Notes under the pieces: generated by a model
Told to the model about the DNA's origin: nothing
Databases searched by the model: none
Seen by the model: the letters and a program-made list of their open reading frames with translations, nothing else
Part shown: positions 1 through 57,600 of the stretch, piece by piece
Numbering within the stretch: the first letter of the stretch is position 1
How the letters are laid out: every line of letters begins with the position of its first letter
Assembly: GCA_976226885.1 (NCBI GenBank)
Contig: CDNGLT010000002.1
Span: 1,426,001 to 1,490,000 of the forward strand
DNA length: 64,000 nucleotides
DNA from: Iphione sp. A-MEVVRFRX5
Taxonomy: Eukaryota
Direction of reading: 5' to 3'
Position numbers and translations under genes: made by a program

Positions 1-941
1 AGCACATTCTCAGTGTACATGAATTGTGCAAGAGCATGCTCGTAGTAAAATGTGGGGTCTCCGACTAGAACTTTTTCTCTTCCCCGTATTTTCTTTTGGA
101 CGTTGTGGAGCCCTACTCTTACCTGGTTCGGTGAGACCAAGGATCCCGGAAGTTTGCCTACTATTAGATCTCTAATACCTGATGTAAATTTAAGATACTG
201 TTCCCTGAGATCATGCAGATGTATAATTTTTAAGGTGAGTATAGTAATGTATGATTGAAGGTGGTACTCAAGGTCGATGTCCTGAGATTGGTTTATTAAG
301 ATTTTCGTCAGCTGTTTGTTAACCTGTGCTACACAATGTACTGACTGTAGTATTGCGTCATTCTGATATTGAACCTGCTGTGTTAAAGTTTGGATGGCTA
401 TGTTGGTTGTATTTGCTAACATTGAGAGTTGAGTTCTAATAGCATGTAGTTGTTCTTGACCTACTTGTGCTGCCAGAACATCTACTCTATGTGAGACTTC
501 TCTAACATCATCCTCGGTGGCTGTGCCAATGAGGAATTTAGAGGCGTCACCAAAAAATCCGAACCATGCTCTTGGCTGTCTACCTACTTTTTGTGATACT
601 GGTGCCATCAGAAGTGAATTAAGTTGGTTTTCCTCATGTCTAACAGTGTGAAAAAGATCTTGATAATACATTTTCATATCCTTTATGAGAATTTCTAGGG
701 TACGGCAGGATGGTCGGCGAGTGCATGGGAGCTGATCCTGTCGTCCAAATGTCGACATTTTTCTTTGAAGGAACGGTGCTGGTCTAGGGATGACGAAGAG
801 TAGGTCAATGCTTCTTGCATTGGCAAGGAGTGGGGTGGGAACTTTCTCATATATGACTCCAAGGTTTTGCCGAAGGATATAATTTGTAGGGTGTGTACCA
901 GGGATGAAGAAAATGAGGAGCAGCAGGATGAGCCCTCCCAT
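1..941 (-). CDS. env: Envelope/fusion glycoprotein of element A, N-terminal part (runs off window), baculovirus-F/errantivirus-type
   Basis: Not in ORF track. Open frame from ATG 941 (MGGLILLLLIFFIPG, signal peptide) to base 1, containing RQPR|AWFGFFGDASKFLIGTATEDD (basic cleavage site plus fusion-peptide-like segment). Aligns with B env RRPR|AWFGFLGSASKALFGTATMDD and FYYEHAL. Confidence 0.85.
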   Translation of the reverse strand, partial: MGGLILLLLIFFIPGTHPTNYILRQNLGVIYEKVPTPLLANARSIDLLFVIPRPAPFLQRKMSTFGRQDQLPCTRRPSCRTLEILIKDMKMYYQDLFHTVRHEENQLNSLLMAPVSQKVGRQPRAWFGFFGDASKFLIGTATEDDVREVSHRVDVLAAQVGQEQLHAIRTQLSMLANTTNIAIQTLTQQVQYQNDAILQSVHCVAQVNKQLTKILINQSQDIDLEYHLQSYITILTLKIIHLHDLREQYLKFTSGIRDLIVGKLPGSLVSPNQVRVGLHNVQKKIRGREKVLVGDPTFYYEHALAQFMYTENV

Positions 942-1101
942 GCTGACCTGGAATGACATGGTTTAGTTCTTAGGTGAGAATCATGATTTGATCTATTTAT
1001 GTTTATAATACGTTTAAAAATTATATTAAGACCAGCCCTCCTGGGTGCTGGGGGAAAAGGTATTCTACCACTGAATAACAAGAAGAGTACAAGTGTTGTT
1101 T

Positions 1102-2924
1102 TTACTGCTTTATTATGTCATATTCCAGGCCGAGGAGTGTTCTTGCGAGGGCTTCCTCCATGGCCTGCTGCACTGCCCACAAGTTACGTAGGTGCCCGCC
1201 GTGGTGGTGTTGGGCACGTAGTGCGAGCACGCACAAATAGTTCCATGGTTTGTGGTCATCAGCTGGGATGGGTGGGTGGTACCCATTCTCCAAAAACTGG
1301 ACCAACCAGCCCCGGACACTCTCTGCTGTATTGGGCTGAGTCAGCCTTAGAGAAAGCGATGCGCTCACCCGGGCGGTAAGGTCCAATAGGGAGTCCATAA
1401 GGAGTGTGGGTGCATTGGACCAATTCTGAGGCATGTGGTGCTGCTGCGTGCCATCAGGTGCATGACCTGACCCGAACTGGATGTGGGGTTGGCGTCTGAG
1501 TGGCACACAGGGCTGGTTGTTACTGTGTTGTGTGAGACACCGCACACATATCTCGCGGCATTCTAATTCTTCTTGTAGATGGTTGAGGAAAGCCGCCTCT
1601 ACCTCTTCTGCCTTATAGGGGCGGTCGGGATAGTGCGAGTGGAAGATGCACACATGCTCCTTGCCACGCAGGACATCGAGTGCTGGCATATAATTTGTAA
1701 TTTCGTGACCTGGTTGCCACATGATGAGGGGGTGGGGGTTTTGATGGCGCGGTTGTGTGGGTGGGAGGAGAGGGGGAAGGTTATTTCTGGGGGTTCGACC
1801 AAGTCGCGGGATATTTTGGGTCCTGTTAAGGTGTTGGCGACTAGTATTGGGGATGCGGTAATTTTCTAGTGGTGGGAGTTCATCTTCAGAGGAGGGGGGG
1901 TTATCAGCCCTGTTCAGGGCCGCTGGTTGGTCTTCATCGGATTCTGATTCTAGGGGAGCGCGCCGGCGGCGCCTAGCGGGGGCTATAGACTCGTCATCTG
2001 AATCACTGGTGGGTGGTGGATAGCGGCGTTTAGGGAGGGTCGGTTGGTTGTCTGTGGCAGGGCTTCGAGGGCGGAGAGGAGTGTCAGCTCTAGGGCTGGT
2101 TGCATCCTCCTCCTGGGTGTCAGGGATCAGCAGGTGTCCAGTTGGAGCTGGTAGGGGTCCTGATGGATTTAGGGGGTTGGGCTGTTTGGGGGGTTTGCTT
2201 GGGGGGTGTCTTGTTGTTGGGTAGGGTTGATTAGGGATGTAAGGGGGTGGGCCAGAGTGACCAGTAGATTGTTCAGTGGTTGGGTAGTCGCCGTGGATTG
2301 GGGTGTGGGTTGCACTGCAGAAGCAAGAGGTTCACAGGGGAAGAAGGAGGATGGGTCAGTTTTAGAGGTGGAAGGCTGATGGGAGAGAGGGTGAGTGGTG
2401 GGGGTATTGAGAGGAGCCTCCGAAGGTAGGAAGGAGGATGGATCAGCTGTGGAGGTGGGGGGCTGGGGGGAGAGGGGGCGAGTGGTGGGGGCATTGAGAA
2501 GAGTTTCCGAGGGTAGGAAGGAGGATGGAGTAGCTGTTGATGTGCTCGGTTTAGGGGAGGGGGGACATGTTTGGACAGCAGGGATGGGCGGTTCTGAGGA
2601 AGGGGTGGAAGATGGGTCCGTGGTTGGCGTGCTTGGCTGAGGGGTGGTGGGTTGGGTGGGGGGTATAGAAGCAGGAGTTGTTGCCGGATCCGAGTTGGTG
2701 GGGTGACTTGTCACCCTTTCCATAAGCATTGCCATGTTGCGTATGAGGCCCACAAAAGCCGTGCCGGAGCTGGTGAAGGCATTTCTGACGGCCTTCTCAG
2801 CCTCGGCGAGGAGGGCTTCTGATACTCTGCGGCCGGCCATGACTGTAATGCTGTGCAGTGTGTCTGGAATGGTATGTAGTGTGTTTCTCATGAAAAGGTA
2901 TTTCAGTATAGTGCTTGTTGTCAT
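1102..2924 (-). pseudogene. Pre-env accessory gene of A: P/S/T-rich linker, RRRRR/acidic patch, CxxC-H-C motif, C-terminal accessory-family domain; one frameshift near 2170-2220
   Basis: The frame of ORF 1102-1722 is open upstream to at least 2220 (manual translation) and overlaps ORF 2169-2924. C-terminal half aligns with B 53845-54396 (W.YLC.LAL.AQ.HH.G.LR...A.QQA.EEA..RT..GLE.D). Confidence 0.75.
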
Positions 2925-3284
2925 TGTGACCTGAGGAGGGGTTTGCAGTGGTTGATCTTAATGGTCATAATGTAGTACACGTGCAGTTGTTATATGACTT
3001 TTTGTAAAAGAACATTCTGATTGATTCGAAATTCATTTATATTGATCTGTACAATTGTGATAAGATGTGAAGTGTACCAATATTATTGTTGCCTGACTAT
3101 TAGCAAAGTCGTCATGATAGGTTTGTACGTGGTAGGAGGAATAAAAATGGGTACTTAGAGGGTGAGGGTGTATTTTGTGCTGATTCTTAATGTCTAAAAG
3201 TCCTAGGGGTTCTTAGTGCATGAGGTGAGAGTGTGGGGGTTGTGCCTAGGAGTTGTAGATTACTTAATTGGTAAAATGATAAGT

Positions 3285-3815
3285 TCAGGGAAACGGAGTA
3301 AACAAATGAGAAGTTTTATTGGTCAAGTTAACAATAGCAAAAACTGCATTATGAGACTCCCAGCCCCTTAAGTGCTTCCTGATCATGGTACACCACCAAA
3401 TCGCATCCTCTACACTTTGCGGCATGAGCGGCACGTGGAGTCTTTGTAAAGCGACTACACAGATCACATCCCAAGTGGGGAAAAAGTGGCATGGGAGATC
3501 TGGCTTCACTCCCATGCGGAGATAATGGAGGATTTCTTGTTTCAGGGCTAGCCTGACTAGTTCATTGTTCAGATCAAAGAAATTGTTCTTCCAGGCCGGC
3601 AGCAGGTGGCCAATCTGACATCTCAAAAAGTTTGAGGCTACCATCTGGAAGAACCTCAGTCTGTCCTGTGGGCTGACAGAAGGGTGTCTTAATCCTGTGT
3701 TTTTTCTAAAGAGGTGTTTTACCACCAGACCCCAGTGACAATCGAAGGAGGAGGGCCTGTCCCCGGCATCCAGCTCGGACCCCCGGCTCCTAGTGGTGAA
3801 TCCGCTTGCAGCCAT
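3285..3815 (-). CDS. Accessory-family paralogue A5 (176 aa, intact)
   Basis: Motifs DC..LF..TGLRHP..R..FFDL..LVRL..Y..KPDLP..FFPTWD shared with other copies; acceptor ttttttcaattaaattcag 4 nt before ATG. Confidence 0.75.
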   Translation of the reverse strand: MAASGFTTRSRGSELDAGDRPSSFDCHWGLVVKHLFRKNTGLRHPSVSPQDRLRFFQMVASNFLRCQIGHLLPAWKNNFFDLNNELVRLALKQEILHYLRMGVKPDLPCHFFPTWDVICVVALQRLHVPLMPQSVEDAIWWCTMIRKHLRGWESHNAVFAIVNLTNKTSHLFTPFP

Positions 3816-4139
3816 ACTACTGAATTTAATTGAAAAAAGGATCTTAGGTGTACTGCTTTCATTAGGGAAGGGTTCTTAGAAGAGTGCCGACTTTAGTGGA
3901 AAAGGACCTAACAAGGTATCAAAATTTATGGTGGGGGGTGGGGGCATAACGAGGTACTATTTCTAATGAGAGGGATTTAAAAAGATACAGAGTGTAATGG
4001 GGAAAAGTATAAAGGTACATTCTGAAATGGGGAGGGTTTGCAAAAAGGGGCAGAATTTTGAGTGGGGGAGAGCATAAAAGGGAGTCCTTCAAGGAAAAGA
4101 TGTGGAAATTACGTAACTAAAAGGGGGAAGACATAGAAG

Positions 4140-4919: not shown

Positions 4920-5107
4920 AAATCCGGAAAACTCAGGTGAATTCGTCCGAAAAGCGTCAAAACTGAGGTAATTTTGTCCAAAAATCCAGTGAAACTGAGG
5001 TGTTTTGTGTGAATATTTGCGAAATTGAGGTAATTTTGATTGAGTTTTGACCAAACTGAGACATTTTTGTGTGAAATTTGGAAAAATTGAGGTAAATTTG
5101 TATGAGA
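4920..5107. repeat. Left half of ~31-bp tandem array split by the ISL2EU-like element
   Basis: aa(c/t)tgag(g) at 4961, 4993, 5023, 5054, 5085; ends ggtaaatttgtatgag, continuous with the array resuming at 9367. Confidence 0.8.
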
Positions 5108-5302
5108 ATGGACTCATCGCCACCTTTCCACGAAGCGTAATTAGTCAACCAATGATATGCCTGTATGCCGGCATTTGAAGCAGTAACCAATCATATTGTT
5201 GGGAATTGCGACATTTGTCTCAAATCGCGGACTCCGTTTATTTACATTCATTTTATGGAGATGTGAGTGTCTTTCACTGCTCTCTTTTGAAGAAATTATA
5301 AA

Positions 5303-5912
5303 ATGGTGAAAACTTGCCAGTATGTTGGCTGCCGGTCAAACGATCGTCACCGTGATCGGCATGGAGGGAAATTAATTTTTTCGCGTTTCCCTAAGCCTTG
5401 GCGTGATAGAGAGAGATGTCTCTGCTGGATTTTAGCATGTCGGCAGCCTGCCGATAAACTGAACATTGAAAAAATCAGATATCATCGATACATTTGTTCT
5501 AAGGTGGGTTTTTCTGTGTGTCTTTACATGATTTGTATAGATATATATTTTTTTTGTATGTCCTACTGTCATTTATATTCCCGTTTCCTTGTTAGTTAGA
5601 ATGTATAATGTATAGTATTGTGTCTCCCGATCCTTTGTTTTGTGCTTGTATGTGAAAGGTTTCTTAATCTAAACTTTCAACCTAAAGTTACAAATTCAAA
5701 ATATGGTTGGCAGTAAGCAGAATTTACGTTAAATTTCTTGCTCGCTGTGAACACGATAGCACTTCAGAGGTGGGTGTGGATCGACGGATCTTAATCCGGT
5801 CCCGATCGATGCAAGAACCTTATGTCATTGCGGTGGAGGTGACGGGCCAGCTGCTACGAAGAGGACTAATGAACTAGCTATGATTCGGTACAACTCTATG
5901 TATAGCATTTGA
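5303..5912 (+). CDS. Spliced THAP zinc-finger gene (exon 5303-5503, exon from 5760)
   Basis: CQYVGC...FSRFPKP...RCLCWILAC...ICSK|gtggg; intron ends ag at 5758-5759 and the next exon reads HFRGGCGSTDLNPVP, completing the THAP CSKHF...P motif in phase 0. 3' extent uncertain (possible donor 5888, stop 5910-5912). Confidence 0.8.
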
Positions 5913-8169
5913 TTGTATATTTCAACGTTACCTTTTCTTTAATGTTCTGTCCACTTTCTGTAAGTGCGTCGTAAAGCGTAAAGATTGGCACGATGCGAGT
6001 CCGCTGCGTTTGTTTCTTTTTTTTGGAGGGGGGGAACGAAATACTGTAGAGATTCAACTGTAATGTTTTCTTTTGTGCCTCGTCGACTACCTTCAAATCA
6101 ATGAGTGAGAATATTACTGGCAATGCATTAAATGAAATGCTATGTAAATAGGCTAATAAATTCGTGAACAGATGTCACTCTATGTCACATCTGGGAAGAA
6201 GTAGGTCAAGCCATGTTTTGCCGTGGTTGCACACATGTTGGTAAGTACGTTTTACAAGAGTTCATTTGGAATTCCTATCAGTATAGAAACAATAATGCAC
6301 TATCTTGCTTTAAATGTTACTCATATTTTATACCGGGGAAACAAATAATACCGATATACTCAAACTCTGTAATGTGCTCTTATTTCCAAAATGGCGTTCG
6401 AGATATTGGATCTACTTGGACGTACTTGTATGTTTTCTTGCTAGCATGAATGAAGTTATTTGCCTATGTTTGAATGATTACTTGGTGGAGTATTTGTTAA
6501 AAATGATTCATCAAATGACAGTACTATTTCTTTCGGTATAGGTTTTCATGATGCATTCTATCTTAAAAACGACAATATTCTCACACACTTGACTTGTTAA
6601 ACAGATAAACTTGAAGACCAGTAGAAACAGTTTTTAAGATCACAAGCATTTTTTTATTTAAATTTTTTTATTATTATTGTTGTCTCGTCAACAAAACTGA
6701 AGTTTTTCCACCGATGCAAAATTAAAAAGTATTTACGTTAAGACAATATGCATTTCTTTGCAAATAAAATCCCATGTACTAAGTGTACATGTTACAAAGC
6801 AACTTTGCACATTCTCGGTCTCCGGAAGATCTTGTGCATTCTCTCGAAATCAGTACAGATTACTGCAACGTGCTTAAACTATATGTGATAACTATCTCTA
6901 AAGAATGAGTCCTCTGTTCATTACGGATATCTGTTATGTCAGAATTCCTTCGCACTTGTCACAATAACTTCTTAGGTGACTGTGTAGACTGTAAATCAGA
7001 AAGACATAAGACTCATAAGCTTGACATGCTTGCATCTTTTAAAATTTACAACGAATATTTAGTCAAAGAAATTTTAGGATTCCAAAATGGTAATGAAATA
7101 TTTTTTTTTTGTTTAAATACTAACTTTCCGTCATGAAGTTATCAGCACATATTGCATTGTCGTTCTGAAGACATGGTCTTTGTTAAAATTTGACATTTGA
7201 CATTGTTATGCAGAAGTATCTCTTTCTTACATTATCTTGATTAAACAGCAATAAGCAAGCAAACATTTCCTTTTTTGTTCTTTTTTTTTATTACCTTGAT
7301 TTTTAATATTTTCTTCTTAGCCTCGATTAGTAACATTTAAAACTTAGCGGTACGTTGTAACATTAGAACAATGTAGTTGAAATGTCTTAAAAGTATAATT
7401 CAAAATCAGGAACGGTAAACTCAAACGAAATTAAGATAGTTGCAGTATTACAGATCCCCGACGAGGTTACTTTCCAGCAGCAGAACGCACTGTACAAATG
7501 CAATTACTTTTAGAACCAATGCGTTTCATTCTCAGAATAAAGGAGTCATTTGTAACATCAACCCCATGCTATACGAATATGTCATAATTAATTTGAATGT
7601 AACATAATTTAAATTTTGTGTAAGTGCATCAATTTTTGTTTGCTATGTCTCGCTCAATGCATAACATATTGTCATAATTTTAATCAACGAATGCATTCAT
7701 TTTTCCTTAGATATATATTTTGTTGGTTTTTTTACATTTAATTTATTTCAAACGATTCATTTGATTAAAACATAAATAAGCATAAATTTATGAAATTTTG
7801 TTCAACAAAATTAGTTATGAAACAGAAATCATAAGATGAACAATTGAATGAACAATATAAATTTGACATGTAAACATGATGCTGAATATAGCATTAAATT
7901 CGAAAATAACAATATATATGGAAACACACCGTCATGGAAGACAATCACTTGAAGTGGCGATTGAGATGGCAACATACAAATGGGGTGCCATTTCTGAAAC
8001 GTATTTGATTTGATATGGTTAGATACATACATTGTAATATGGAATCCAATGTAATACTGCTCCATAAGAAAATTGGAAAGCTTCAGACTATGACAGAACG
8101 CCTAACATTGAGTTAGGAATTGTAAATAAGGTTGACATTTTGTCAGACACTGAACAACATTTAGAATTA

Positions 8170-8320
8170 AGAAGGAGAGAGAAAGAACGAGAGGGAGAGA
8201 GGCATGGAAGGAGAGAGAGGGATGGAGGAAAAGAGAGATGGATGAAGGAGGGAGAGTGAGGAAATAAAATGAGAGGTGAAGGGAGGGAGAGAGACAGTGA
8301 GAGGGAGAGGAGGAGCAAGT
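8170..8320. repeat. GA-rich low-complexity tract
   Basis: Purine-only gaga/ggag runs; produces spurious Leu/Ser ORFs. Confidence 0.8.
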
Positions 8321-9366
8321 GTGACCACCCGGGATGATATAACAGGGGGAATCAATGAGTACTAGATAACTTTTCACAAAGAATTAACCCTATACAGGCG
8401 GAACCTGACGATACGTCATGGACTCACAGGGCAGGGTGAATTTTGATGTTTTCATATAGAGGGCGGCACACTATTGTTGTGTCAATTTTTTATTAACGGA
8501 TGTTTAGTTGTGTCAAAACCCTTCTAAATGTATACTTTTCAATTGTCTAAGGAGAATTGAAGATGCACATTTACTTATGAAGGTATTTAGAGCATAACTA
8601 TGGATTTATTTGGGAATATTGCTTTGAATTAGATATTAGATAGGTAATTCACTTCGTATGTCAGCAGTTTCCGGTCTAGACACAGGGAAATGTGAGTTTT
8701 CAAAGGAAAATGAAATGTTCTATTCAGAATTCATTATTTCTGTATATATCCGAATAAAGTATGACTCTTTTTGTATATTGTCTCCAAATCTCATCGAAAT
8801 CCATGCAGTATTTGTATGTTAATTCATTGTAGACGCACTAAAAGTTGACAAACCCCGTGTAGCGGCTGGTGCCAGACGTTTGATAAAATATATCCAGTGG
8901 GACATGATATACAGCCGGTCTCCTGTAAAGAATACCGATCATACTCAGGAGGAGTCCAGGAGTAGCTAGTAAAGCATTAACAAGAATTCATATATGAATA
9001 ACGAAGCAATTAAATGCATTTCTTGGATTTGGTGTGTTGATCCCCCCCGTGTACATCGGAACTCATGCCAGCTTGTTCGCCACTACTGCGTGTCTGTGTT
9101 ATCTTACAAACCCATCAAAAGAAAGCAATACAATTAACAATACAACAATAAAATCGTGCATGTAATGTTGCCTGCTACTTACTTACCAGAAAATTGATAC
9201 AGAATAAGGTAAATATGCACGGTCCACGAGGTTACAGACCACTTCACAGTTACAAATATGACCTGCTTGTCTTGTACATACCTCGCACATGTCAATTACG
9301 TCATTTAGCGCCAAAAATAGCGTCGCATTCTGATTGGCTAACCGATCGCAGTGGCGATCGGTCCAT

Positions 9367-9594: not shown

Positions 9595-9973
9595 GGTGTG
9601 CCAGTAACTGTGTCACCATGACAAGGGTGTCCCATGCAGGCAGGAAGCGTGTCAGGAGGTTTGGCTCCCTATGGGTGTGAAAATAGTTCACAACCAGTTG
9701 TATCACCCCCAGTTGTACGAGGGTGCAGTTTAGGTTAAAGAACCGCCCCTCCTGCCAAGTGGGCAGGATGACTCCCATGTGAGTGTCAGTTACTCGTGCT
9801 AATCTGTCTAACATCCAGAATCTTTCCGAGGGGGTGACGTTAGGGTGCCAGATCCCTGTTTTCTGGCCAAATAATACACTAACAAGGGCGGGATCACAAT
9901 CCGCAAGGGTTGGCTTGTCTCTGTGCAGAATGGATTGGGCCCTCCTTGTGGCTCTGGCGTAATGCCCCATCAT
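9595..9973 (-). pseudogene. Accessory-family paralogue A4, C-terminally truncated
   Basis: DCDP..LFGQKTGIWHP..FFNL..LVQL..Y..REPNL..FLPAWDTL; homology stops at ~9597 where the frame runs into the tandem array. Closest to A3. Confidence 0.8.
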
Positions 9974-10348: not shown

Positions 10349-10885
10349 TTAATCCCAGATTTCTAGATCTGGTGGTGTGATGGGTCTACCCACCATTAGG
10401 AGGTCAGTCTGTAGTGGTGTGGACGTGTAGCAGTGCACGTATGCATGTACTGCCTGTCTGGCCGCCTCTCTGTGGGGGTCTAGGTTGTAAGGGCCGATTG
10501 GCCAGCGCTGAAAGTGGTTCAACACGACCATCACAAGGGCATCCCAGCTGGGCAGAAAATGTTCCGGTAGGTTCGGCTCTCTTCGTGTCTGGCAGTAGGT
10601 TACTAACAGCTGAACCAGGCTTATCTGCACAAGGGGGGAGTCCAGATTGAAGAATTGGCTTCCCTGGTAGCCAGAGAAGACAACTCCCATGTAGGTATCT
10701 GTTGTGAAGGCCAGCCTGTTCAGCATAAGGAATCGTTCCAGGGGTGTGATGTCAGGGTGGTGGAGCCCTGTTTTCTGTCCAAAGAGTGCCTTGATGAGGA
10801 CCGGTTCGCAGTCCACAAGGCCCGGTCTACTGCCCTGTAGGATAGCTTGGGCTCTCATGGTGGTTCTTACGTAGTGACCAGTCAT
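10349..10885 (-). CDS. Accessory-family paralogue A3 (intact)
   Basis: DCEP..LFGQKTGLHHP..FFNLDSPLVQI..Y..REPNLP..FLPSWDAL..REAA..IWD*. Start placed at 10885 (MTGHYVRT matches A4 MMGHYARA; acceptor AG 10890-10889). AATAAA at 10301-10296. Confidence 0.8.
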   Translation of the reverse strand: MTGHYVRTTMRAQAILQGSRPGLVDCEPVLIKALFGQKTGLHHPDITPLERFLMLNRLAFTTDTYMGVVFSGYQGSQFFNLDSPLVQISLVQLLVTYCQTRREPNLPEHFLPSWDALVMVVLNHFQRWPIGPYNLDPHREAARQAVHAYVHCYTSTPLQTDLLMVGRPITPPDLEIWD

Positions 10886-11039
10886 ATTCTGAAGTAGATA
10901 TTTGAGAGTCATATCAAACTTCTGTGGGAGGTGTCTAAGGTCTAGAGGAATGATGGGTGGGGGGGTGGCTTGGGAGTTGAGGATGGGATTTCAGGGAATC
11001 TTGTTGCCTTCGTTATTGGTATATGCTGAGGGTTCCTCC

Positions 11040-11594
11040 CTAAGGGATGTTTGTGGTCGTATCCCACTCATCGTCATCGTAGGTGGGTGTTGGGGGGTAC
11101 AGGCCCGCGTCTAAGAGGTCGTGGTTAACCATGTGTACAGATGAAGTTTTTTGCATATATGTGCACTACCCTTTTACTGCAGCCTCCTGCACGTGATCTA
11201 TGGCCTGTGACAGTCGGGATTTCATCCGCAAGGCTCTGAAGGCCTCTACAGCTAACTGGTCCCATACTGGACAGAGGTGTGCTGGGAGCAGTGGTTCTTG
11301 GGCAGTCCTGAGGTAACGGGCGAGGACCTGTACGATAGAAAGCTGCACCAAGGGTGAGCCTAGGTTTAGGAGTGTTCATTCCCAGGGGAGAACAACTGTC
11401 CCAAGGGAGTCAATACGGCTCGCAAGGTGCTGCAGTAGCTCGTAGCGCCGAAGGGGTGTGACCCTAGGATGACGTAGGCCCTTGTCAGGCTGGTAGAGAC
11501 CCAGGGTCAGGCGTGATATGCAGTCCTTGATCTCAGGTATTGCTCCGTCTTGAAGTTCCCCAAGTCGGGCGGATACTTCCTCATAAGTATTCAT
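11040..11594 (-). pseudogene. Accessory-family paralogue A2, 185 codons with two in-frame stops
   Basis: Single frame: DCIS..GLRHPRVTP..PWE*TLLNL..LVQL..EPLLP..PVWDQL..EAAVKG*..YDDDEWDT; stops at 11376 and 11166. Confidence 0.8.
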
Positions 11595-19444: not shown

Positions 19445-19455
19445 CCCCTCCCCTT
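19445..19455 (-). other. Polypurine tract of element C
   Basis: AAGGGGAGGGG immediately upstream of the 3' LTR on the minus strand. Confidence 0.85.
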
Positions 19456-26918: not shown

Positions 26919-26927
26919 TGTACAAAG

Positions 26928-30607: not shown

Positions 30608-30611
30608 GGAT

Positions 30612-37983: not shown

Positions 37984-38079
37984 TGACGGCTGTCGTGATG
38001 GGCCAGATGTGGCTGCTTTTAAAGGGCCTGGACTCTATGCTAATGTGGGAGGGAATCAATCAGACCTTTTGACAAAGGT

Positions 38080-40292: not shown

Positions 40293-40326
40293 ATGAGACT
40301 CCTAATAAGCCCAAGTATTGGGAGTC
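40283..40326 (+). promoter_or_regulatory. Putative -1 ribosomal frameshift signal, B gag/pol
   Basis: G GGA AAC TAG, 7-nt spacer, stem GACTCCTAAT/ATTGGGAGTC (one G-U); the -1 frame GKLDETPNKPKYWES joins ORF 40355. Confidence 0.8.
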
Positions 40327-46449: not shown

Positions 46450-46998
46450 ATGTTTAAGATAATTTGCACTCGGGAAAGAGCCCTGGCTGAAGGAGAGGCC
46501 CCAACATTGGATGACTGCATACCCCAATTCGCCTTACTACTATTCAGGGCACACCAGGGCATGAGGCACAAAGACATCTCAGCACAGGAGAGGCATCACC
46601 TTCTTCAACACCTGTCATACCGAGTGAATGACCCCGGTATGGCCTTCATCCAGTGGTGTCCCAACTTCTTCAACCTGGAGTCCCCCCTGCTGCAGCTCGC
46701 CCTGGTGCAGGTGCTCACCACATACCTTGAGACTAACAGGGAACCTATCCTACCCAAAAGGTTCTACCCCATGTGGGATACACTTATTATGCTGACACTG
46801 CATGAACAATGCTGCTGTGTAGCCTTTGGGCCAAGTTATAACAGAACTGCTGCGGCCGAGGCAAAAAAAACTTATCTCGCAAGGACCAAATTGAAGCCCC
46901 CACATCCTGGCATATTTGCCGATCCCAATATACTTAAAGAGGACGATGGGGATTGGGACACTGTGGCTTGGCCCCCAAGTATAGTAAAAGCCACCTAG
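46450..46998 (+). CDS. Accessory-family paralogue B1 (182 aa, intact)
   Basis: DCIP..LF..GMRH..FFNLESPLLQL..Y..REPILP.RFYPMWDTL..DDGDWDT; acceptor AG 46445-46446; AATAAA 47030. Confidence 0.82.
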   Translation: MFKIICTRERALAEGEAPTLDDCIPQFALLLFRAHQGMRHKDISAQERHHLLQHLSYRVNDPGMAFIQWCPNFFNLESPLLQLALVQVLTTYLETNREPILPKRFYPMWDTLIMLTLHEQCCCVAFGPSYNRTAAAEAKKTYLARTKLKPPHPGIFADPNILKEDDGDWDTVAWPPSIVKAT

Positions 46999-47168
46999 AG
47001 ACTACACAAGGGCTTACTATTATTGAGACAATAAAAACATTATAATTCAGACACCAACTTGTCTCCCCTCAATACAAATTCGTTGTTTTCAATTGATATG
47101 ATGCTAACCGAACAACCCTCCACCAAACTCCTAAAGAACCTTTTTGCCCTTTTAATATCTATTTAGGT

Positions 47169-47739
47169 ATGTCAGATCAGCTTAGGAAACTGCAGCGCCG
47201 GGCCTCCCAGCTATGTCAAGGCAGGGTCCCTACCCTATCAGATTGCAGGCATGAGCTTACCGCAGAACTTTTTCAGCCTAATTCGATATTTCTACCTGAC
47301 TCACCTCTCCTATGGTGACCACTCACCATACTGCATGAGCCTGCCCTCTTGGAGGGGCACGTTCTTTGACCTAGATGCCACCTTGGTTCAGCTCTCAGTG
47401 ATTAGGCTGCTACAAAACTACATGCATACACAGCAAGAACCCTGCCTACCTGCTCACTTTTACCCCTCATGAGACACTCTAGTAATGCTCACCCTTAGTG
47501 AATCTATATGGGTCTTCATACAGGATGCCTCCTTGGACCTCATACAAGAAACAGCAGTCAGGGCCGTACTACAATATCAACTCAGGTTCTCTGACCATGA
47601 TGTCTAAATCCACATGCTTACAGCCGGACTATACCCCTGTCCTGTGACAACTGAAATAGATAGTGATGACTATATGTCTACAGATAGCGAGGAAGAGGAC
47701 AATATGAGTATATCCACAGATGATGATGAATCACAGTGA
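47169..47739 (+). pseudogene. Accessory-family paralogue B2 (frameshift and stops, acidic tail)
   Basis: MSDQLRKLQRRASQLCQGRVPTLSDC..ELFQPN; FFDLDATLVQL..Y..EPCLPAHFYPS*DTL (TGA at the conserved W); acceptor AG 47165-47166; AATAAA 47871. Confidence 0.78.
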
Positions 47740-49559
47740 CATACCCACATCTTGGTGATACCGTACTGTGATAATTTACTCAGAAGCACTCCTGATCAAT
47801 TACAGAGCAGAACTTATCAGGTTTCAGTAAAAAGATACTATACTGAGGACAGTTACTCAATGCAGTCAATAATAAAAAGGAATCCTTAAAATTGTGTTTT
47901 TCCCTTATCTCTATCTTAGACGGTTGCAATAGCAGAAAGTATTGAGTATTCCCATTACAGCCATAATCTACAGCAAAATTAAAATCTATAATTACAATGT
48001 TCTTGACTAATATTTACACAAGTAGTATATACCATTTAAACTAAGGAAAACAAACACAGGACCTTAAATTTCTATCACTTTTAATAAATTAGCACATAGT
48101 ATAGCAGTTACAGTAATAAGGCCAATGTCACTTCTAAAAGGATTAACTCCTGGGACACACACCTCTACACTCTACTTGAGTAAATAACTACTTGACACAC
48201 CCTCCAGGGCTTCCAGAATACAAAAATCTGACAGAAGCGACCCTCCTAGTCATGTTTCGGCTTCTGAGCACATGCCTTGCCCTCTGCGGGCCCAACCTCT
48301 CCTGGGGTCGGAGACTGCAGGCGACTTAGGTTTGTCAGCACATGCTCCCCCGTCGCGCAGCCCACTGCATACACGCTCATAGACTGAATGGCAGCTGGCC
48401 TCTCCTCGCATATGACAAGAATACCTGAAAAATATATGGACAAAAACAAAAAAAGGAGACACGGTCAGAATAATCAATCAGCACTGAGTGGATGCACACA
48501 TGATAGACCATGACAAAAAAAAAAAAAACCCACACTATAGACAAGCGCATTGGAAAGGAACTGCATCTGCCACCATCCCACACATGCGAACCCATGCTCT
48601 ACTCACTCTCAAGCGGCACCTCTCCTCTGATAGTATCCCTTCGGAGTACAACCCGCAGCCCAGCAACAATCCTCCTCAGGAAATTGATGATCCCGGTACA
48701 GCTTGGGCACCAGCCTGGACTAAAATACTCCCTCACGGACATTATCTCTCCTCTTTTTCTGTCAGAACCACACTAGACAACCTCCACACACTTCTGCTGT
48801 TTAACCCTATGTGGTCAAAATCACGTCCAGTTCATGCACTGGCCAGCTCACAGCTGCCACGTAAACCCCTGACACTTCACCCGAACAGGTGCTGGATGTT
48901 TTCTCATCAATTACTCAGTAGTAAACACGTTCTACAGACTCCTACTAAAAAGGTTATTCATTAGCCCCTGCAATCGATATAAAACATTTCTTGTTTATAC
49001 CAAAATGGTTCCCACCCGGCCACTCTAACAACCTTGCGCGATGAGCCCCACATGTCAGGTAGTGCCCTCTCGACACTCGGACGTCTCTCTCCCTCAACCC
49101 CTCTATCAATAAGCCCAACAACTCCACTATCTGGAAATCTGTATCACACAAAGTAGGATAGACTACAGGGATAGCATCTAGCTTTCAACCAGTGCTCCTC
49201 AACCGGATACCATGACTGAACAAAAGCATATACATATATCATAACAAAACATCTGCATTATTCACACCTAACCTGTCAGTGTACACTCACTCCTGATGCT
49301 CACGGCCCTGGCTCTGCTTCTCCTTGATCGGGCTAGTCGGATTTGTTGGCACTCTACACTCCTGTCAATGGCTGGCGAGGTATGCCCAGGATAGTGTCCA
49401 ACCTAAAAACAGTAGGATGATAGTAGGGATTACATCAGTCTCTTGGTTTTTACATAATCATACATATGCTCTAGATACACAACATGCACAGTATTTAACC
49501 AACTACTTACACAATCAGTTCTCTACACATATACCCAAACACCCACCTTGACACTTTTT

Positions 49560-50520
49560 GATAGTAGGTGACATAAAAATTCATAAATCTCCAGTTCTAA
49601 TTGTCCAATTTACATGCAACAAATGCCAAAAGAAAGCTCATACCCTCAGCTCTTCAATGATACCATCATCTCTTCTCTAGCATGAACCCTTCCCATAAGC
49701 AAATGGCAAAACGTCGATTGCATTCCGTCACATTCTAATGAGAATAAGTGGAAATGGTTGTGCCAGCTGACACTCTAACACTGGGTGTACATAAAAATTC
49801 ATATCTCCAGTTTTAATTGTTGTATTGACATGCAGAAGCCACCAAATAAAAGCTTAGATCCTTACCTTTCCACTGGTACCATTATCTAGTTTATAGGAGT
49901 AATATCTAATGGAGAAATTTGCAAAAACTTCGAATCACAATTGGCTGAAATTCGAATGACACCGACTTGTCACTTTTGACAGAAGGGTATCAACATGCAA
50001 CGACCACCAAAAGAAAGCTTATCACCTGCTCTTTCCAGTGGTGGGATCAGCTAGCCTGTAAAATGATAATTTCATACCGAACGGACAAAAAACATCTGCC
50101 GAAATTTGAATGTCTATTCCCTCTGTCACTCTGACACTGGGTGTATAGAAACATTCCTATCTCTGGTTCTATTCATCGTATCAACATGCTACAACCACCA
50201 AAAGATAGCCCAGAGTCTCACCATTCCAAATATACCATCATTTAGTCTCTAAGATGGATATCTCATAATGCAATTAATAAAAAACTTCGAATTGCGATCG
50301 ACCAAAGATTTGAATGCCTACTCATTCTGTCACCCTGATACTGGGCGTATAGAAAAATTTATATCTCCGGTTCTAATGATCGGATTTACATGCAACAACC
50401 ACCAAGAGAGAGCTCAGAGTCTGACCTTTTTGCTGATACCATTATTTAGTCTATAGGATGAATATCTGGTAGCAAATATTGCAAAAAACACCAACTCACA
50501 ATTTGTCAAACTACGCCTAT
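49560..50520. repeat. Degenerate ~204-220-bp tandem repeat, ~5 copies, in B accessory region
   Basis: Recurrent atctc(c/t)(a/g)gtt..acatgc..ccacca..agc blocks near 49580, 49800, 49990, 50150, 50350. Confidence 0.7.
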
Positions 50521-52909
50521 TATCACCCACCCTGGGCTGACACTGACGTCCAGCAAAAAGTAAACACATCAAAAGGACATTTTAGCAGTGACACTCACCT
50601 TCCATACTTTATCTTCTCCTTCTCAAATATGTTTCTGAAGATATGCATCCATGGGAGCCTTTTAGATGCCTTCGTTTCCTTTAAAAACAGGATTTTATGC
50701 TAGCACACACCAGCCTCGGCGGCAGACAGCAGTCTGGGTTAGACTTGCAACCCCACTCCCTCCCCAGTGAAGATCCAAATGGCCATTGTATCGACCACGT
50801 CAGGTTCCCCGATAGCTCTCTCTCAGGTTAACCAGGCCATATACATCCCTTTCACCCTGCTATCAGGAGAACTGGCCTGACTAGGCCACTCCCTCGAACT
50901 GACCGCTAATATCAGATCAGGTAACCCGTTCTCCTGCCATATTAAGAGCTCTGCACATCGAGTCTCACCCTGCTTGCCTCAACCGTGCATCCCTTGGTTT
51001 AACTGACCCCATCGGGGCACCACTCCTCTAGCACTGTATCCTTGCACTATTTCTGGAACTGCTCTTCACAACACCTTATCCATGGCATCTTTTTTTCTCA
51101 TGTGCACTTGGTGCTGGCCAATCAAATAATACTTCACCTGGAATTAATTACATGCCTCTTAATACTTCACACATATCTAGAAGGATAAATAGCATTTCAT
51201 GCAAGACAGACAAAAACTTTTCATGATAGGCTAGTAGTGGGTCTATGGTTGAGTCAGTAGGTGCGTGGCGAGCACCATGCAGGATGGCAGTCCTGAGAAA
51301 CCTAGACTTGCCACTACACTCCTCCTACTTGATAATAATGTTCCACTACACAAAAAGGTTTTTTTTTGCCTTGGCTATATACTTAAAGCATTTTGCCAGT
51401 CCTACAAATCATACCCATGCAAATTCCACTGCTGAAGGCACCAGAACTTTCAGACTTAGAGATTATCATCTTTGCTACATATTCTTTAACACAGGGACTT
51501 ATGCTAGTCTACCCCAGGAACATACCAGTCGTGAGGTGCCGGGATGCTCACCCCAGCTGACCCTCCCCTCATTGGCAACAACGTAACTCTTTCTGTTTGA
51601 TCCAACACTGCACCCCTAATTAGGACTCGCCTCTTCAAGATGCTGCCGAAGATACCCCCCGCCTTATAAAGAGATGGTTAATCAGATGGACCACCCTCTG
51701 AGTAGCATAAAAACAGGCCCTGCCAAACCCTTCAACCGCTCTTCTGTGCCAGCCCATAGGGACGTCGGATCAACCAGCACCCAGTCACTTTCTCAGTCCA
51801 TCAGATCACTCAGCACCAACTGACCTTATCTGAAGAACTGATCGTGATCACTCATCTCTCTGTACTCAGTGAGATACACCTGACAGATATCAAAGGTCTG
51901 CGCCAAGTCAATTTACTGCATCACATATACCAACCATCATTAAGCACACACACTACCAGTTAATTTTTCTGAAGATTGAATCTTGGACCCCTGAAGAGTA
52001 CTCTGACTGACCCGTGTCAGACTCAATCAGGATCTAACCACTATAGACAATCACTTTCCAAGGGACCTATCTCTCAAGGCAGATTCCCCTGGATCCCATC
52101 TCATTGCATCATGGACGCAAGGTAAGCCATCTATTACATACATATCTTGATCTTTTGAAAAGTCCTGTGGATTTTATCATGGCCCCCCTCCCAGACACCT
52201 TAGGCCCACATATTATACTGCTAAACACTGCAGACTATCCCTACCACATTCTCTTTCCCTACAAAATGACCATTAAGTCACACGCTTCAGCTACATCCAT
52301 TTTGATCAATGCTCCAACTGAAATGTTACACCCTCCTAACCATGTTACAACACATCTGTCTGTCAGTCCGTCTATTTGTCTCTCTCCTCTTCTTTCCTAC
52401 AAATTCACTCTAGCAAAATGCAGTACTGACTCCTGCTCCTCTTCAACCTTATCAGGGCCTCCTTCACTAGAAATTTCTGACAATTCATACATCCTCCATG
52501 AATTCTCTTCCCTCCTGCAACTACGTAAAGTTCCACAGCTACCCTTTTCCAACTGTTTTTGATTCCCTTTTGGGGACACTCACACATAAAAACATTGCTG
52601 CTATGGACGTTGTGCAAGACTCTTCACACATTTTTCTACCATTATCCACAGTTTACAAGTCACCCTCAAAAAAAAAAAAAAAAAAAAAAAATATTCAAGG
52701 CAATCTGAATTCCCTTCTCTCCCCTTCTTCCCCAACTGCACTCCAACTGCTCCTGTCACCCACATTTCTCCAATAGTGGCTGCATATTCTATTCACCTTT
52801 TTATCACTATCCCTTCCCCATCCACATTAGCTTTTTGTCCTTCAATTTACCTTATGTCAGATGCTTTTCTGGTCACTAATAAAGTTTTCTCTTTCCCCTT
52901 CTACACCAG

Positions 52910-54396
52910 ATTCAACCTGTCTCAAGCATTCGCCACTGCTCTGTTCAGCGAATTTGGGCGCTTCCTCAGCTCCCAAGGTGAACTCCCTCTGACGAATGCA
53001 GCCATTCAGGACGATGAACACGTCCCCTCGATGTCTACTGGCTGGACACACCATAACCGGGGACTGACACCTACCCTGCGAGATCCTCGCCTATTCGGAA
53101 CCCTGACCTCGGCAGACCAGCCAGTGTTACCACTGCCGGGCTTCGAGGCTGTCGGGGTGCCAGCCTTCCAGGGCCAAGCTTTGGGCCCTTTCTGCACCCC
53201 AACAACTTGCCCCCATGGCCTCGGATATGAGAGGTGCCAACAGCCCGTCCCCTTATCACGCATGGCTCAACTACCAGCTCCTGCCTGCCCTCCATCTGCA
53301 TCACACACTACAGGTCCCGTGACCACCTACTCTTCACCAGCAACTGCCCTTTTGCCCCCAATGGAGCCCGACACCCCGCAGGACCAGCCCAGGCCTGAAT
53401 CCCCCACAACCCTTCCTTGTCCCGCCCCACCGACCCTGTTGACCACCCCGTCTGTCCCCACCCCAAGGCTTCCATCTTCTCCTGATGCCTCGCAAGTCCT
53501 ACGCACCCCATCACCACCCTCGGCAGATGTGAACCCCCCTGCCCTGGCCGGATTGCCTGACTGCTCCACCCCCCTATCAACCCCACCGGCTTCACCATTC
53601 GTGGACACACCCTCCGTGGCTTCACCTCCTGCTTCCTCATGTCCTCCACCCATGTCTCCGGCTTCTCCTGCCCCATCTCCTCACTACCCCCCCTCTGCCG
53701 CATCCTCCCCCCCCTCATCCTCCCTCACCTGCTCACTCTCCTTCTCCTTCTGAAGAGGACTACATACTACCCCTCTCCTACCAACCAGGATATTACTTCA
53801 CCAACTCCCTCCCATCCGACCCCATAGGTTTTAGGAATGCGGAGATGGAATGCATCTTCTCACTGGCGTTCCCTGAGCGTCAATACTCCCATGAGGAGGC
53901 GCAGGCAGCATATCGTGGGCATGTTGGCCACAAGATGCGCCGCCGTGGCATCTGCCGCCATTGTGAGCACCTCCACTACTCTACTGACCCCTGCCTTCCC
54001 CCCACCTCCCAACCCTCTATCCAGTGGAAAGGTCTACGAAAGTCCTTCACCACTGATGCCTGCCACCGCGTCACCCTCAGACGCAAAGCTCGGAACTCTG
54101 CCCTCTTCAGAGATGCGCTAACACACAAGACCCCAAACCTGGCTAACTCTATCTCCTTCAATATCTACTCCCCCAAGGTTGCCTCCCAGACCGGTGAAAT
54201 GCTCACAACATACCTCCGTGACCCTTTTACCCCACCTCTCCCAGCAAGTGAGGTGCCCCTCTGGGACTACCTGTGCATGCTTGCCCTGCCGGCTCAAAGC
54301 CATCACTTGGGGCCATTGCGGGACTACCGTGCAGCCCAACAAGCCCTTGAGGAAGCAGCATCTCGAACCATATTTGGGCTAGAAAAAGACCTGTAG
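52910..54396 (+). pseudogene. Pre-env accessory gene of B (P/S/T-rich, CxxC-H-C, family domain); frameshift near 53710
   Basis: YQPGYYFTN..CIF..CRHCEHLH..C..WDYLCMLAL.AQSHH..EEAASRTIFGLEKDL aligns with A 1102-1722; 5' end approximate. Confidence 0.75.
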
Positions 54397-54649
54397 CCCT
54401 GAACAGCATAGATTTTTCATCATTTTGTGTTTCTTTGGCTAAATAAAACGTCAACAATTTTTACACTGCCTTCCGTGTTGCTCCTTTCATTGGGAGTTCA
54501 GTGGTAGAACTCAAGTTTTTAGTGCTTGGGAGGGATATGTACATTTAAAAGCCTAACACTTCAATAAACACACACATAAAAAGAAAAATAAAAAGGGGTA
54601 ATAATTGAAAGTAAGTTAAAACCCTGCCTACCTATCATTGCAGGTCGGC

Positions 54650-56810
54650 ATGGATACAACCCTCCTGCTCCTACTTATCACCATAGTGCCCATGGCATAA
54701 TCCACACACATACTGAGACAGAATTTTGGAGTCCTTTCTTTTTGTGATCCCAAGACCAACATCCCTCAAGACCAGCAATAAAGCCAAACCACTCCAGGAA
54801 GAACTCCCATGTGCTTGGCGAGGGGCATGCCCCTGCCTGGGAGCCTTCATCCACAGAACCCAACTCCTTTATGAAGGAGTCTTTCAGGAAGTAGTTGAGG
54901 AGGACCTTCAACTCAATAAACTTCTAGCTAAACCAACCTCAGAATCAGTGGGAAGAAGACCAAGAGCATGGTTTGGCTTCCTTGGATCAGCCTCTAAGGC
55001 ACTATTTGGAACTGCAACCATGGATGACATACATGAACTGTCTAAACATATTGACACTTTATCTGCATCAATAGACCCATCACAGATCAAAGCCCTACAA
55101 ACACAGTTAGCAAATTTGTCAAATCAAACTTCAGTCACAATGCATGCAGTAATTCGACAAGTAAGCCGTCATGATAAAGCCATAGGAGATATTATACAGC
55201 AAACAGATCAGTTGTCCAGGCAGGCCACCTATATCCTTGAGAACCAGACCCATCTAATTGATGTCGGCTTCAAAGCCCAAAATTACATTGCTGCCCTTAT
55301 ACTCAAAATCACCTACCTCCAGAAAGTTAGAGATCAATACCTACACTACCGACTCGCAATAAATGATCTACGCATAGGCCGTTTACCAGGAAATCTGATC
55401 AGCCCAGAGCAAATAGCCCAGGGCCTTACTAAGGTCAGTATGGGACTTCGGGGACACCATCAAGTAATGATAACAGACCCAGGATTTTATTATGAACACG
55501 CCCTCACAAAATTCATGTATTCAGCAAGATATCTTTTTCTGCATGTATCAGTCCCAGTAGGCCCTGCTGCCAACCAACACGACTTATATCGCATACATAC
55601 ATTCAGCACACCTTTCTCCACAACTGCCACACACGGTTACACCAAAATACAACACATGCCTGCCTATGTAGCTGTATCCCCCTACCAGGCCTCTTTTATG
55701 GAAATGACAGCCCATGAAGTAACACTCTGTCAGGGACATGACATTTTGACTTGTAAAACTTTACCACCTCTCAATAGAAAGCCACTACATACCTGTTCTA
55801 TGGCCTTATTCCATAACAGACATGACCTCATGCAGCACCTGTGCCAGTTCACTGTGCATCCAAACTCTACCATGACTCCGTACCTCAGACGACTCAATGA
55901 TATAGCCCTTATTTCAGCAGGAACTCATCCTGTATCAATCATTTGCTCAGGGAAGATTGAGGCCATCCATTGTCCCCTCTGTACCTATAAACCACCCTGC
56001 AATTGTACCCTGAGGGTAGGACCATACGATATGCCCCCATCAGGCTTCTGTGATTATACTCAGGCCCTAATGCCTGTACATGGTATTAATCTAGCAGTAG
56101 CCACAGCATTTAACATGTCTCTCCCAAATTTCACTGCCTCTGCTACCTTTAACGACTCCTTTTTCTTCAATATACCACTACACAGAGCTGCTTCGTTTAA
56201 CTTGTCCCAGTCATTGCCTAAAGATACAGGTGTCGACCTTGCCAGGGTTGCCTCACAGATAGATCAAGCCCGTAAGAACATGATTAAACGTGAAGAGGAA
56301 ATGCCACACTGGCCCACCTGGCTCGCAAGCCAGGCCAGAACAGTAGCCACACTGGTCATTTGGATATGGAACTCAATCCATTCAGCCATAACCATAATCC
56401 TTCTGCTATTTGTTATTCACCTACTCACAAAAGTAAATAAGCTGGCATTTTCCCTAGCACTAACCCAGGTGACTGAATCTGCCCCTGTACTACTAGGACC
56501 GACTATCCAGCCGACCACCAACCAAACACCAGAAATACAGATAACCTTGAGTCATGTAGACTCTGTCCAGATAGCAGCTAGTGTCTTGTTCTGTGTGTGG
56601 GTTCTCTGCAGGCTTCTTCAGGCCATTCTCAGATGCTGCAAACATAAATCCACAGAAACAGGCCCTGTGCCATCACCCCCAGGCTTTCAAATTCTCTCGA
56701 AGGTAGGATCCCCTAGAGACCATACCACACTTCTCCATGAATTTAGGACGAACGCCCTTCCAACAACCACCTTCCTGGTTCCCAAGGTAGTTACAATGGG
56801 GGTGGAATGA
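54650..56810 (+). pseudogene. env: env of B, F-type fusion glycoprotein; signal region frameshifted and internally deleted
   Basis: ATG 54650 MDTTLLLLLITIV; ILRQNFGV in another frame and ~17 codons missing relative to A; 694-aa open body with RRPR|AWFG, Cys-rich domain and two hydrophobic segments. Confidence 0.85.
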
Positions 56811-57284
56811 CGATGCCTCTCTTGCTTTGTCCACCTCACATATTCCAACCCCTTATACCGATCTGATGCTATCTCTACTCGTAAGGTGAATCTGCCGCAG
56901 ATAATATGAGTCCCATTGTGGAAAGGGAAACATATTCAACGTCTCTTGCTAACTCTCAAAGACCTCCCGGCCCAGGCTATAATTCTTGGACAACAGGGAT
57001 GGGCACAGCCCCTCCAAAACGGACTCTACCCAAATCTCCCCATTATGCCATCTGGTCCATCCACCACTATGCAACCCTCCTCCTCTGCCAAATTCCATAA
57101 CCGACCCAAATCAGTCATGTCCTCACCTCTGGCCTACAATGACCTGCTGGCAAAACTGGACGTGAGCGAAGTTATTGAGGAACCAGCTTCTGTAGATGTG
57201 TCTCAGCCCAAGCCGAAAGCCAATAATATTGTTAAACTGTTCAACTCCCCCTATGCAGACTCAACAGAGAGAATCGCCTACAAT

Positions 57285-57600
57285 ATGGCCGATTTTCAAA
57301 GTGGCCGATGTTCAAAGTGGCCGATGTTCAAAGTGGCCGACCATGTTCTTGTATGGCCGTGTGTTTTCGCGGCCAAATCTGTCTGTTAAAATGGCATCAG
57401 TCTAAAATGGCCGTTTATGATGTTCTTATATGGCCGAGCTATTCTCTTTATATGGCCGTATTTTATTTTAAACCTCAAGTTGTCACGTGTTTTTTTATGG
57501 CCGTAAATAATTGAATGAAATGCATCGTAGACTGATTTACAGACAGATTTTCCCCTGGTAACACACGGCCATAACCGACCATGGGCGCTCATGCATAAAA
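57285..57600. repeat. Short tggccg-core repeats at the 3' end of B
   Basis: tggccgatgttcaaag-type 16-mers x3 and scattered (t/a)atggccg. Confidence 0.7.

Follow-up and report, generated by a model that had tools for sequence, protein, structure and literature searches.

The stretch of DNA analysed here, 64,000 nucleotides from Iphione sp. A-MEVVRFRX5 (C5:1426001-1490000, in contig CDNGLT010000002.1 of assembly GCA_976226885.1; hereafter the window), raises the question of what kind of gypsy element carries many kilobases of extra sequence between pol and env. The genome is 1.18 Gb in size, is assembled in 89 contigs and has TTAGGG telomeres. By self-comparison and Pfam searches the window holds two collinear elements in opposite orientation, A on the minus strand and B on the plus strand, each containing gag, a frameshift site, a Cys-rich region, protease (PR), reverse transcriptase (RT), RNase H (RH), integrase (IN), a long block of other sequence and an F-type env, as an earlier note made from the sequence had described. 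A and B are decayed, dead copies from a Ty3/gypsy lineage that bears env, is abundant and was recently active. The complete unit comprises a tRNA-Ala(AGC) primer site, gag, a -1 frameshift, pol, a block of open reading frames (ORFs) of one family, here named AccX, an ORF with Pro-rich, Cys-motif and AccX-like parts, env and a polypurine tract (PPT). We consider it highly probable that this is a giant "complex" lineage of errantivirus-like elements that is still mobile or was so very recently.

Eleven copies were read at both ends, and their long terminal repeat (LTR) pairs, 98.3-100% identical, surround the whole region from gag to env, which forms a single LTR-bounded unit with 4-bp target duplications (perfect in 6 of 8 resolved copies of clade E). 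From LTR to LTR, B-like copies measure 18.4, 22.0 and 22.2 kb, C copies 19.4 and ~18.4 kb, a D copy 23.5 kb, A-like copies 23.1 and 23.4 kb, and T copies 33.2, 33.6 and 33.9 kb; the LTRs of nine E copies are 27-34 kb apart, and the sole interior read, from one copy, holds a nested insertion. The size of ~19-20 kb proposed earlier therefore describes the span from gag to env and not the whole element, which extends over 18-34 kb. The LTRs end in TG..CA, except those of C and A, which have an AA end. The primer site matches host tRNA-Ala(AGC) genes (4/4 loci checked), and the presence of both a tRNA primer site and a 3' PPT agrees with Metaviridae. Genome searches, whose counts are lower bounds, covered 4562 candidates for env, of which 64 were scored and gave 65 matches, with 150 of 4463 candidates scored for AccX and 150 of 14116 for integrase. 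AccX lies downstream in 9/9 copies picked by integrase alone, so the accessory block accompanies other copies of this pol; env was found within 15 kb in five of these nine, was lost by internal deletion in one and was not reached in three. Weighing against a uniform unit, env is missing from two copies (an A-like one at C10:15.84 Mb and one at C15:10.14 Mb), both looking like deletion derivatives. Two side observations were made in these searches. One C-type copy (C1:95.10-95.13 Mb, L014/L016) lies inside a satellite array, and the start of its 5' LTR carries a duplication of 193 nt. The small contigs C27 and C78 carry tRNA-Ala-like 3' ends in pairs spaced by 1.5 kb; their T-arm looks bacterial, and they may belong to the rRNA operons of a symbiont or contaminant.

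The gag and pol genes place the lineage near Ty3. The slippery heptamer GGGAAAC, the gag stop and a downstream hairpin are kept in 5/5 copies folded, pol has the order PR-RT-RH-IN with a GPY motif, and its best match with a solved structure is Ty3 Gag-Pol (1e-123), retroviral RTs scoring 1e-34 or weaker. No chromodomain was found in a Pfam scan of two full pol C-termini (E <= 1). An orphan Cys/His-rich region of ~190 amino acids lies between the frameshift site and the protease in all clades (e.g. L012:947-1516) and is 60-76% conserved; homology searches with this region returned no match. The env product exceeds the Pfam cut-off for Baculo_F (8e-11) and, by hydropathy and motif scan, has a predicted signal peptide, a hydrophobic peptide preceded by a basic site, and a transmembrane (TM) segment at the C-terminus. 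One relative of env was found, at 25% identity, and a sequence search against solved structures gave no match. Neither a retroviral RT nor a TM-type env, as in Retroviridae, is present.

The properties of env also bear on infection. In one alternative the element is purely intracellular, and env and AccX serve cell-to-cell passage in the gonad or escape from silencing; we rate this alternative just short of evenly balanced. It is favoured by the lack of relatives in the viral and metagenome contigs searched (the latter with the RT-RH region), by the finding of all subfamilies in one genome and by the heavy load that an RNA of 20-34 kb would presumably impose on a particle, but env is strongly constrained (dN/dS 0.08, with 85% identity at saturated dS) and has the anatomy of a fusion protein. 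The intracellular alternative differs from the reading of A and B as members of a complex errantivirus-like lineage only on infectivity, and is otherwise compatible with most of it.

The distance from the pol stop to the env start is 6.9-20.1 kb, and env thus does not directly follow pol as in the three-ORF errantivirus layout. By a count from ORF maps ~20-40% of this block is coding, with one to five AccX ORFs (~180 amino acids) and one Pro-rich ORF before env, whose C-terminal domain keeps Cys and His invariant and shows homology to the C-terminal half of AccX (hhalign 97%). The view that the accessory genes share only motifs is replaced by that of one gene family with 29-58% identity over 110-200 amino acids. 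Between subfamilies AccX has dN of 0.24-0.57 and dS of 1.6-2.7 or saturated, and the window copies give dN/dS of 0.28-0.30 against close relatives; the extra ORFs form a single orphan family on which purifying selection acts. Selection is not significant in the young clades (C: 0.68, P 0.5; T: 0.49, P 0.07), which counts against this statement there. The proposal of a "virus-like accessory genome" is supported, with the qualification that it overstated the diversity of genes, there being one expanded family plus long non-coding DNA. Orthologous groups of AccX span clades (B1-T1, B2-T2-D1 and T3/T4-D2; grouping of 16 rows, with 2 left out because of stops); the duplications are therefore old, and the clades have sorted them differently, and the best 150 matches scored for D-type AccX are all 98-100% identical and stop-free, which indicates a recent burst. 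In the remainder of the block no further stretch with third-position bias and an intact frame was found, most parts cannot be aligned between distant clades, and no Rfam family was detected in 134 kb.

How could ORFs so far from the 5' end be expressed? A pyrimidine tract and AG stand just before the conserved-position ATG in 29/35 AccX ORFs, mostly 2-3 nt away, compared with 44/440 and 23/202 control ATGs, and an acceptor also precedes the env ATG in four of the six copies shown. The AccX signals point to accessory mRNAs made by splicing, a trait of complex retroviruses, and together with those at env they fit alternatively spliced subgenomic mRNAs. A near-exact internal copy of the PPT is found 60-170 nt before env in 9/9 copies of B, C, D, E and T, and the internal and 3' tracts share clade-specific variants in D and E; the internal tract may be a second plus-strand primer or, alternatively, a relic of env exchange. 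Three points weaken this picture: the set of 35 AccX ORFs lacks independence, since many are copies of the same paralogue, no splice donor is conserved across subfamilies, and the internal PPT copy, being absent from the A lineage, is not essential. On this reading the full-length RNA would serve as genome and also as gag-pol mRNA, whereas each AccX ORF, the pre-env ORF and env would be translated from alternatively spliced subgenomic mRNAs by way of the acceptor at each ATG; the long non-coding DNA would then be intron or cis-acting space, and the second PPT might prime plus-strand synthesis on the long template.

No AccX homologue was detected in Pfam, in 5.8 billion proteins (lengths 49-405 only) or in 1.84 billion representatives. 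These searches bear on the alternative that the element is an ordinary errantivirus bloated by captured host or junk DNA, with the block as passenger and AccX without a role. That 60-80% of the block is non-coding, that it varies in length over 7-20 kb and is mostly unalignable between subfamilies, and that the number of paralogues ranges from 1 to 5 would all suit bloating; yet the ORFs are under purifying selection at saturated dS, AccX is present in 9/9 integrase-picked copies with an acceptor fixed before the ATG, and no host homologue appeared among the 5.8 billion or 1.84 billion proteins, nor did the searches run reveal a host gene origin of the block. We regard bloating as very improbable as an account of the element; for the ORFs it is largely refuted, and for the non-coding part it may still hold.

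The role of AccX was approached through predicted structures. The AccX model has six helices (pLDDT 76.6) and the model of the pre-env domain a pLDDT of 79.5. Neither fold had a Foldseek match at E <= 0.001 in PDB or BFVD, which does not establish a new fold, and the best Z scores in VIA were 4.4 (root-mean-square deviation 5.5, 130 aligned) and 3.6 (2.5, 40 aligned). The Sec7-like and NusB-like VIA matches were taken as chance, and Atlas matches of AccX at 0.91-0.93 were rejected as generic helical-repeat families with low recognition and few shared features. No fold or sequence match thus supports any AccX role, and this weighs against each of the following proposals. The foremost, still short of probable, is that the proteins act as small helical adaptors against silencing or defence by the host, paralogues being gained and lost in the conflict. 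It is possible, with somewhat less likelihood, that the family exports or stabilises the very long unspliced RNA, the best candidate being the pre-env protein; CERV of Cer1 is reportedly a precedent for an RNA-export accessory protein in a gypsy element. A part in tethering for integration, including the telomere choice of clade T described below, seems unlikely, and some other role equally so.

Clade T (99/98 in the integrase tree, 17 of 31 rows) is a sister clade distinct from the dispersed clades D and E. Its 33-34 kb copies lie outside the window and have TTAGGG repeats on both flanks; A and B themselves are not telomeric. Of the T host junctions read, 23/25 are in telomeric repeats (17/18, 1 more and 5/6), after five tandem junctions with a shared LTR and seven unresolved ones had been set aside, the second set consisting of hard cases. 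By comparison, 0/20 junctions of the non-T clades are telomeric. Integrase matches cluster at contig ends: irrespective of how the junctions were chosen, among the best 40 DNA matches of the T integrase scored, 39 are within 0.51 Mb of a contig end and one is at an interstitial TTAGGG run. Genome-wide, exact telomeric junctions number 36 in one orientation and 27 in the other, and the phase of insertion is fixed, since allowing a gap of 0-5 nt still yields 36/36 G-strand junctions. The two LTRs of one copy are 99.3-99.9% identical, those of different copies 81-95%, and the copies are therefore separate recent insertions.

An alternative is that T owes its position to retention and subtelomeric duplication rather than to targeting. 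Subtelomeres exchange readily, five tandem junctions have a shared LTR, identical integrase stretches occur on different chromosomes and two T copies are not telomeric. Each T copy nevertheless has its own near-identical LTR pair, insertions in both orientations keep one 4-nt phase, and the non-T junctions read are never telomeric; moreover, dispersal is evidently tolerated, since the sister clades are dispersed in hundreds of copies. We judge duplication an improbable explanation.

Targeting itself has points against it. The first set of junctions was picked near chromosome ends, and the same two copies lie outside telomeric repeats. The start of the T LTR is common to the dispersed clade E, an exact telomeric flank being found in 63/2050 LTRs with this start (770 of them 3' LTRs); the idea that every such LTR is telomeric was rejected, as most belong to clade E. 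The T integrase differs from the others in 5/204 core columns, its C-terminal domain being nearly unchanged, and it is 96% identical to the dispersed D integrase, so that no targeting determinant stands out. A link of one T-specific integrase position to target choice found no support in the accessible part of PMC5053271, where the HIV-1 integrase positions named for target choice are only 119 and 231; the 119-equivalent is unchanged in T. Most likely T would reach telomeres by tethering or through telomeric chromatin, and the TTAG phase would be set by the integrase.

Several observations accompany the T copies. Chromosome ends consist of arrays of T elements in both orientations with short TTAGGG spacers, extending 100-500 kb inward (for example C1:179394292-179428198 in L027-L030, L031-L034, L022-L025 and other ends). 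An interstitial TTAGGG cluster with several T elements (C19:7.94-7.99 Mb, L052/L051/L053) may mark an ancient fusion of chromosomes or else a mis-join. In 23/63 telomeric and 2/8 dispersed junctions the target duplication closes, at the U3 end, with GG where another pair of bases is expected, and an extra C was seen once at a U5-end junction. These deviations match the LTR-adjacent bases of unintegrated DNA, which suggests that the 5' overhang is often kept in gap repair.

Returning to the window, A is flanked by a CATC duplication at both outer ends. The 5' LTR, primer site and first ~60 gag codons of B are upstream of A and outside the window, beyond the A 3' LTR (C5:1423026-1424279, just upstream of the window). 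A is therefore nested in the 5' part of B gag; both members are present as claimed earlier, with the correction that A lies inside B gag and not beside B. A position in the B 5' untranslated region (UTR) was considered and rejected, the insertion point being in gag. The RTs of A and B are 83% identical over 58 amino acids and 75% over 96, close to the 85% over 80 reported before. Coordinates likewise bear out the block sizes (10.5 kb in A, being 14.7 kb less an insertion of 4.3 kb, and 9.2 kb in B). Both elements are broken, each in several genes, by stops, frameshifts, deletions and insertions. The whole nested region is duplicated ~221 kb downstream (C5:1.647-1.703 Mb) at 98-99% identity.

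Element A, all on the minus strand, begins with a partial 5' LTR (37990..38863) that has lost its 3' end and the primer site and is 96.6% identical to the A 3' LTR. This LTR has an array of short palindromic units (19 counted); such arrays occur in U3 of all A-, B- and C-type LTRs (window 38043-38794), and unit number varies and sets LTR length. The gag gene (32589..38004) has a CCHC knuckle (zf-CCHC), is split by a LINE (long interspersed element) and is collinear with A-like copies. It is followed by the slippery heptamer GGGAAAC, gag stop and downstream hairpin of the -1 frameshift signal (32555..32598), and by pol in two parts, the first (30608..32600) with the Cys-rich region, which has no match, the protease and the RT start, and the second (15686..18872) with the RT end, RNase H, integrase with GPY motif and a low-complexity tail. 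Directly after the pol stop a small hairpin-like repeat is present in three copies (window 14916-15259). The block of A contains AccX paralogue 1 (13666..14205, broken, 92% to an A-like copy), paralogue 2 (11043..11594, broken), paralogue 3 (10352..10912, dN/dS 0.28 versus an A-like copy), paralogue 4 (9614..9973, N-terminal part matched) and the divergent paralogue 5 (3288..3875, a stretch unmatched in the C11 A-like copy). The pre-env ORF (1105..2957) occupies two frames; it has a Pro/Ser/Thr-rich part followed by a CxxC..C motif and the AccX-like C-terminal half. The 5' part of env (3..962), 43% identical to B env and 86% to the C17 copy, runs off the window and has an internal deletion further on.

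Element B, on the plus strand, starts within gag (38864..40292, minus the first ~60 codons), followed by GGGAAAC, the gag stop and a hairpin of -31.6 kcal/mol over 60 nt (40283..40342) and by a broken pol (40271..45292) with the Cys-rich region, PR, RT, RH, IN and tail. Its block has AccX paralogues B1 (46438..46974, with a splice acceptor 3 nt before the ATG and dN/dS 0.30) and B2 (47098..47736, broken), a non-coding part of ~5 kb with dispersed repeats of ~110-300 nt and no Rfam match (47737..52856), and the pre-env ORF in two frames (52857..54393). The internal PPT copy lies just 5' of env (54516..54534), and a splice acceptor leads into the F-type env (54630..57279, ATG at 54650, Baculo_F E 1.3e-9), which has breaks close to its 5' end and around 56.8 kb. 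Other DNA interrupts B after env (57280..64000); the B 3' UTR resumes ~7 kb beyond the window, where L126:6993-7667 matches a B-like 3' UTR, and the B 3' LTR is cut just past its start. Within the interrupting DNA, an ORF with a weak PHD-finger match (E 0.027) and then a 60-nt tandem repeat (window 63144-63998) are probably the start of another transposon inside B.

The three insertions that the earlier note had subtracted from A are genuine. The LINE in gag (33455..37717, minus strand) has an APE endonuclease and RT (Pfam Exo_endo_phos and RVT_1) and a 7-nt tandem tail, and is absent from A-like copies. The RT is interrupted by an unrelated gypsy element of canonical size (18873..30607, minus strand) with 572-bp LTRs (18873-19444 and 30039-30607) that are 95% identical and have TG..CA ends, a GGAT duplication, its own F-type env at 21252-22001, a nested repeat at 26684-27626 and an RT ~41% identical to that of the giant lineage. 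Relatives of this element are near or inside other lineage copies (L011, L037 and L062). The block holds an AT-rich, unclassified 4.3-kb insertion (5105..9365) that is absent from the C11 A-like copy and in which no terminal inverted repeat was found.

The findings suggest that gypsy elements can evolve a plan like that of complex retroviruses, with putatively spliced accessory genes and a candidate second PPT, and can reverse-transcribe more than 30 kb. In this animal 33-kb proviruses, lined up in arrays with short TTAGGG runs between them, make up the chromosome ends, and the telomere-confined T and the D copies dispersed in hundreds, despite their similar integrases, make site choice by an LTR element directly testable. 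AccX offers an orphan domain, confidently folded in the models, with many natural paralogues. A bolder reading goes further, and we put it forward tentatively, leaning against it as a whole: the elements would be undescribed, genus-level "complex" gypsy viruses, a parallel in Metaviridae to the complex retroviruses and among the longest LTR-bounded genomes (33-34 kb), with a new, alternatively spliced helical accessory family, the first integrase-based element at a fixed phase in animal TTAGGG telomeres, and AccX paralogues as adaptors that set the niche of each clade.

Among known systems the complex retroviruses, with the layout of lentiviruses and spumaviruses as the source of the comparison, resemble the giant lineage in having accessory ORFs, multiple splicing (putative here) and a second PPT. 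The giant lineage differs in its Ty3-like RT and F-type env, and AccX has no sequence or fold link to retroviral accessory proteins. Foamy-like endogenous retroviruses of fish reach 17 kb, according to the accessible part of PMC6431247. The errantiviruses and other env-carrying Ty3/gypsy elements (PMC13524379, available in part) share the order gag, pol, F-type env, the LTRs, a tRNA primer and recent multi-copy spread, whereas the giant lineage has env 7-20 kb from pol, an accessory family, a Cys-rich pol N-terminus and a length of 18-34 kb. The 2026 metazoan errantivirus survey reported there was limited to pol-env gaps of <=1 kb and regions of <=10 kb and could not have recovered giant elements because of these limits; current errantivirus surveys thus filter them out, and the words "accessory" and "telomer" have 0 matches in its main text as accessed. 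That the family is already named in Repbase, Dfam or a subscription paper is unlikely. Its abundance favours a name, since an automated repeat library of the genome would hold pieces of it, but no match for this architecture or for a TTAGGG-targeted LTR element was found in the open full-text literature (subscription papers and repeat databases aside), the survey limits exclude such elements, and none of the elements listed shares the primer-site 11-mer. Literature uses of "telomere-specific LTR" proved to concern non-LTR elements or a human subtelomeric LTR repeat and were set aside.

Burro, the giant planarian gypsy element, is similar in having more than 30 kb, LTRs, env homology and accessory coding capacity, but in the portion of PMC6431247 at hand its env lies between gag and pol in one polyprotein of ~4,900 amino acids with BIR, BCL2, MATH and ankyrin domains; in the giant lineage env forms a 3' ORF of its own and small orphan ORFs behind splice acceptors make up the extras, so that the Burro layout is not found. 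The rotifer elements Juno and Vesta (PMC5408684, in part) are also gypsy elements with extra non-env ORFs, their ORF3s being recognisable enzymes, and no homology of AccX to the ORFs reported in that part, or to CERV of Cer1, was detected. As LTR elements biased to chromosome ends, Ty5 of yeast (PMC4700185) and Retand of Silene (PMC12477314) are like T; in the accessible text of these sources Ty5 is tethered by contact of its integrase with Sir4, both target silent or subtelomeric chromatin with no fixed repeat phase, Ty5 is a copia element, and neither has env or the block. The telomere-repeat specialists of the literature, as far as the available sections of PMC4700185, PMC12857005 and PMC12477314 extend, are non-LTR or Penelope-like. 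SART/TRAS, MoTeR/FoTeR and Terminons (PMC4700185, PMC12857005 and PMC6431247, same parts) share with T insertion inside telomeric repeats; they insert by means of an endonuclease with target-primed reverse transcription and usually have a single orientation. T, unlike them, has LTRs, a DDE (rve) integrase, a 4-bp target duplication and insertions in both orientations.

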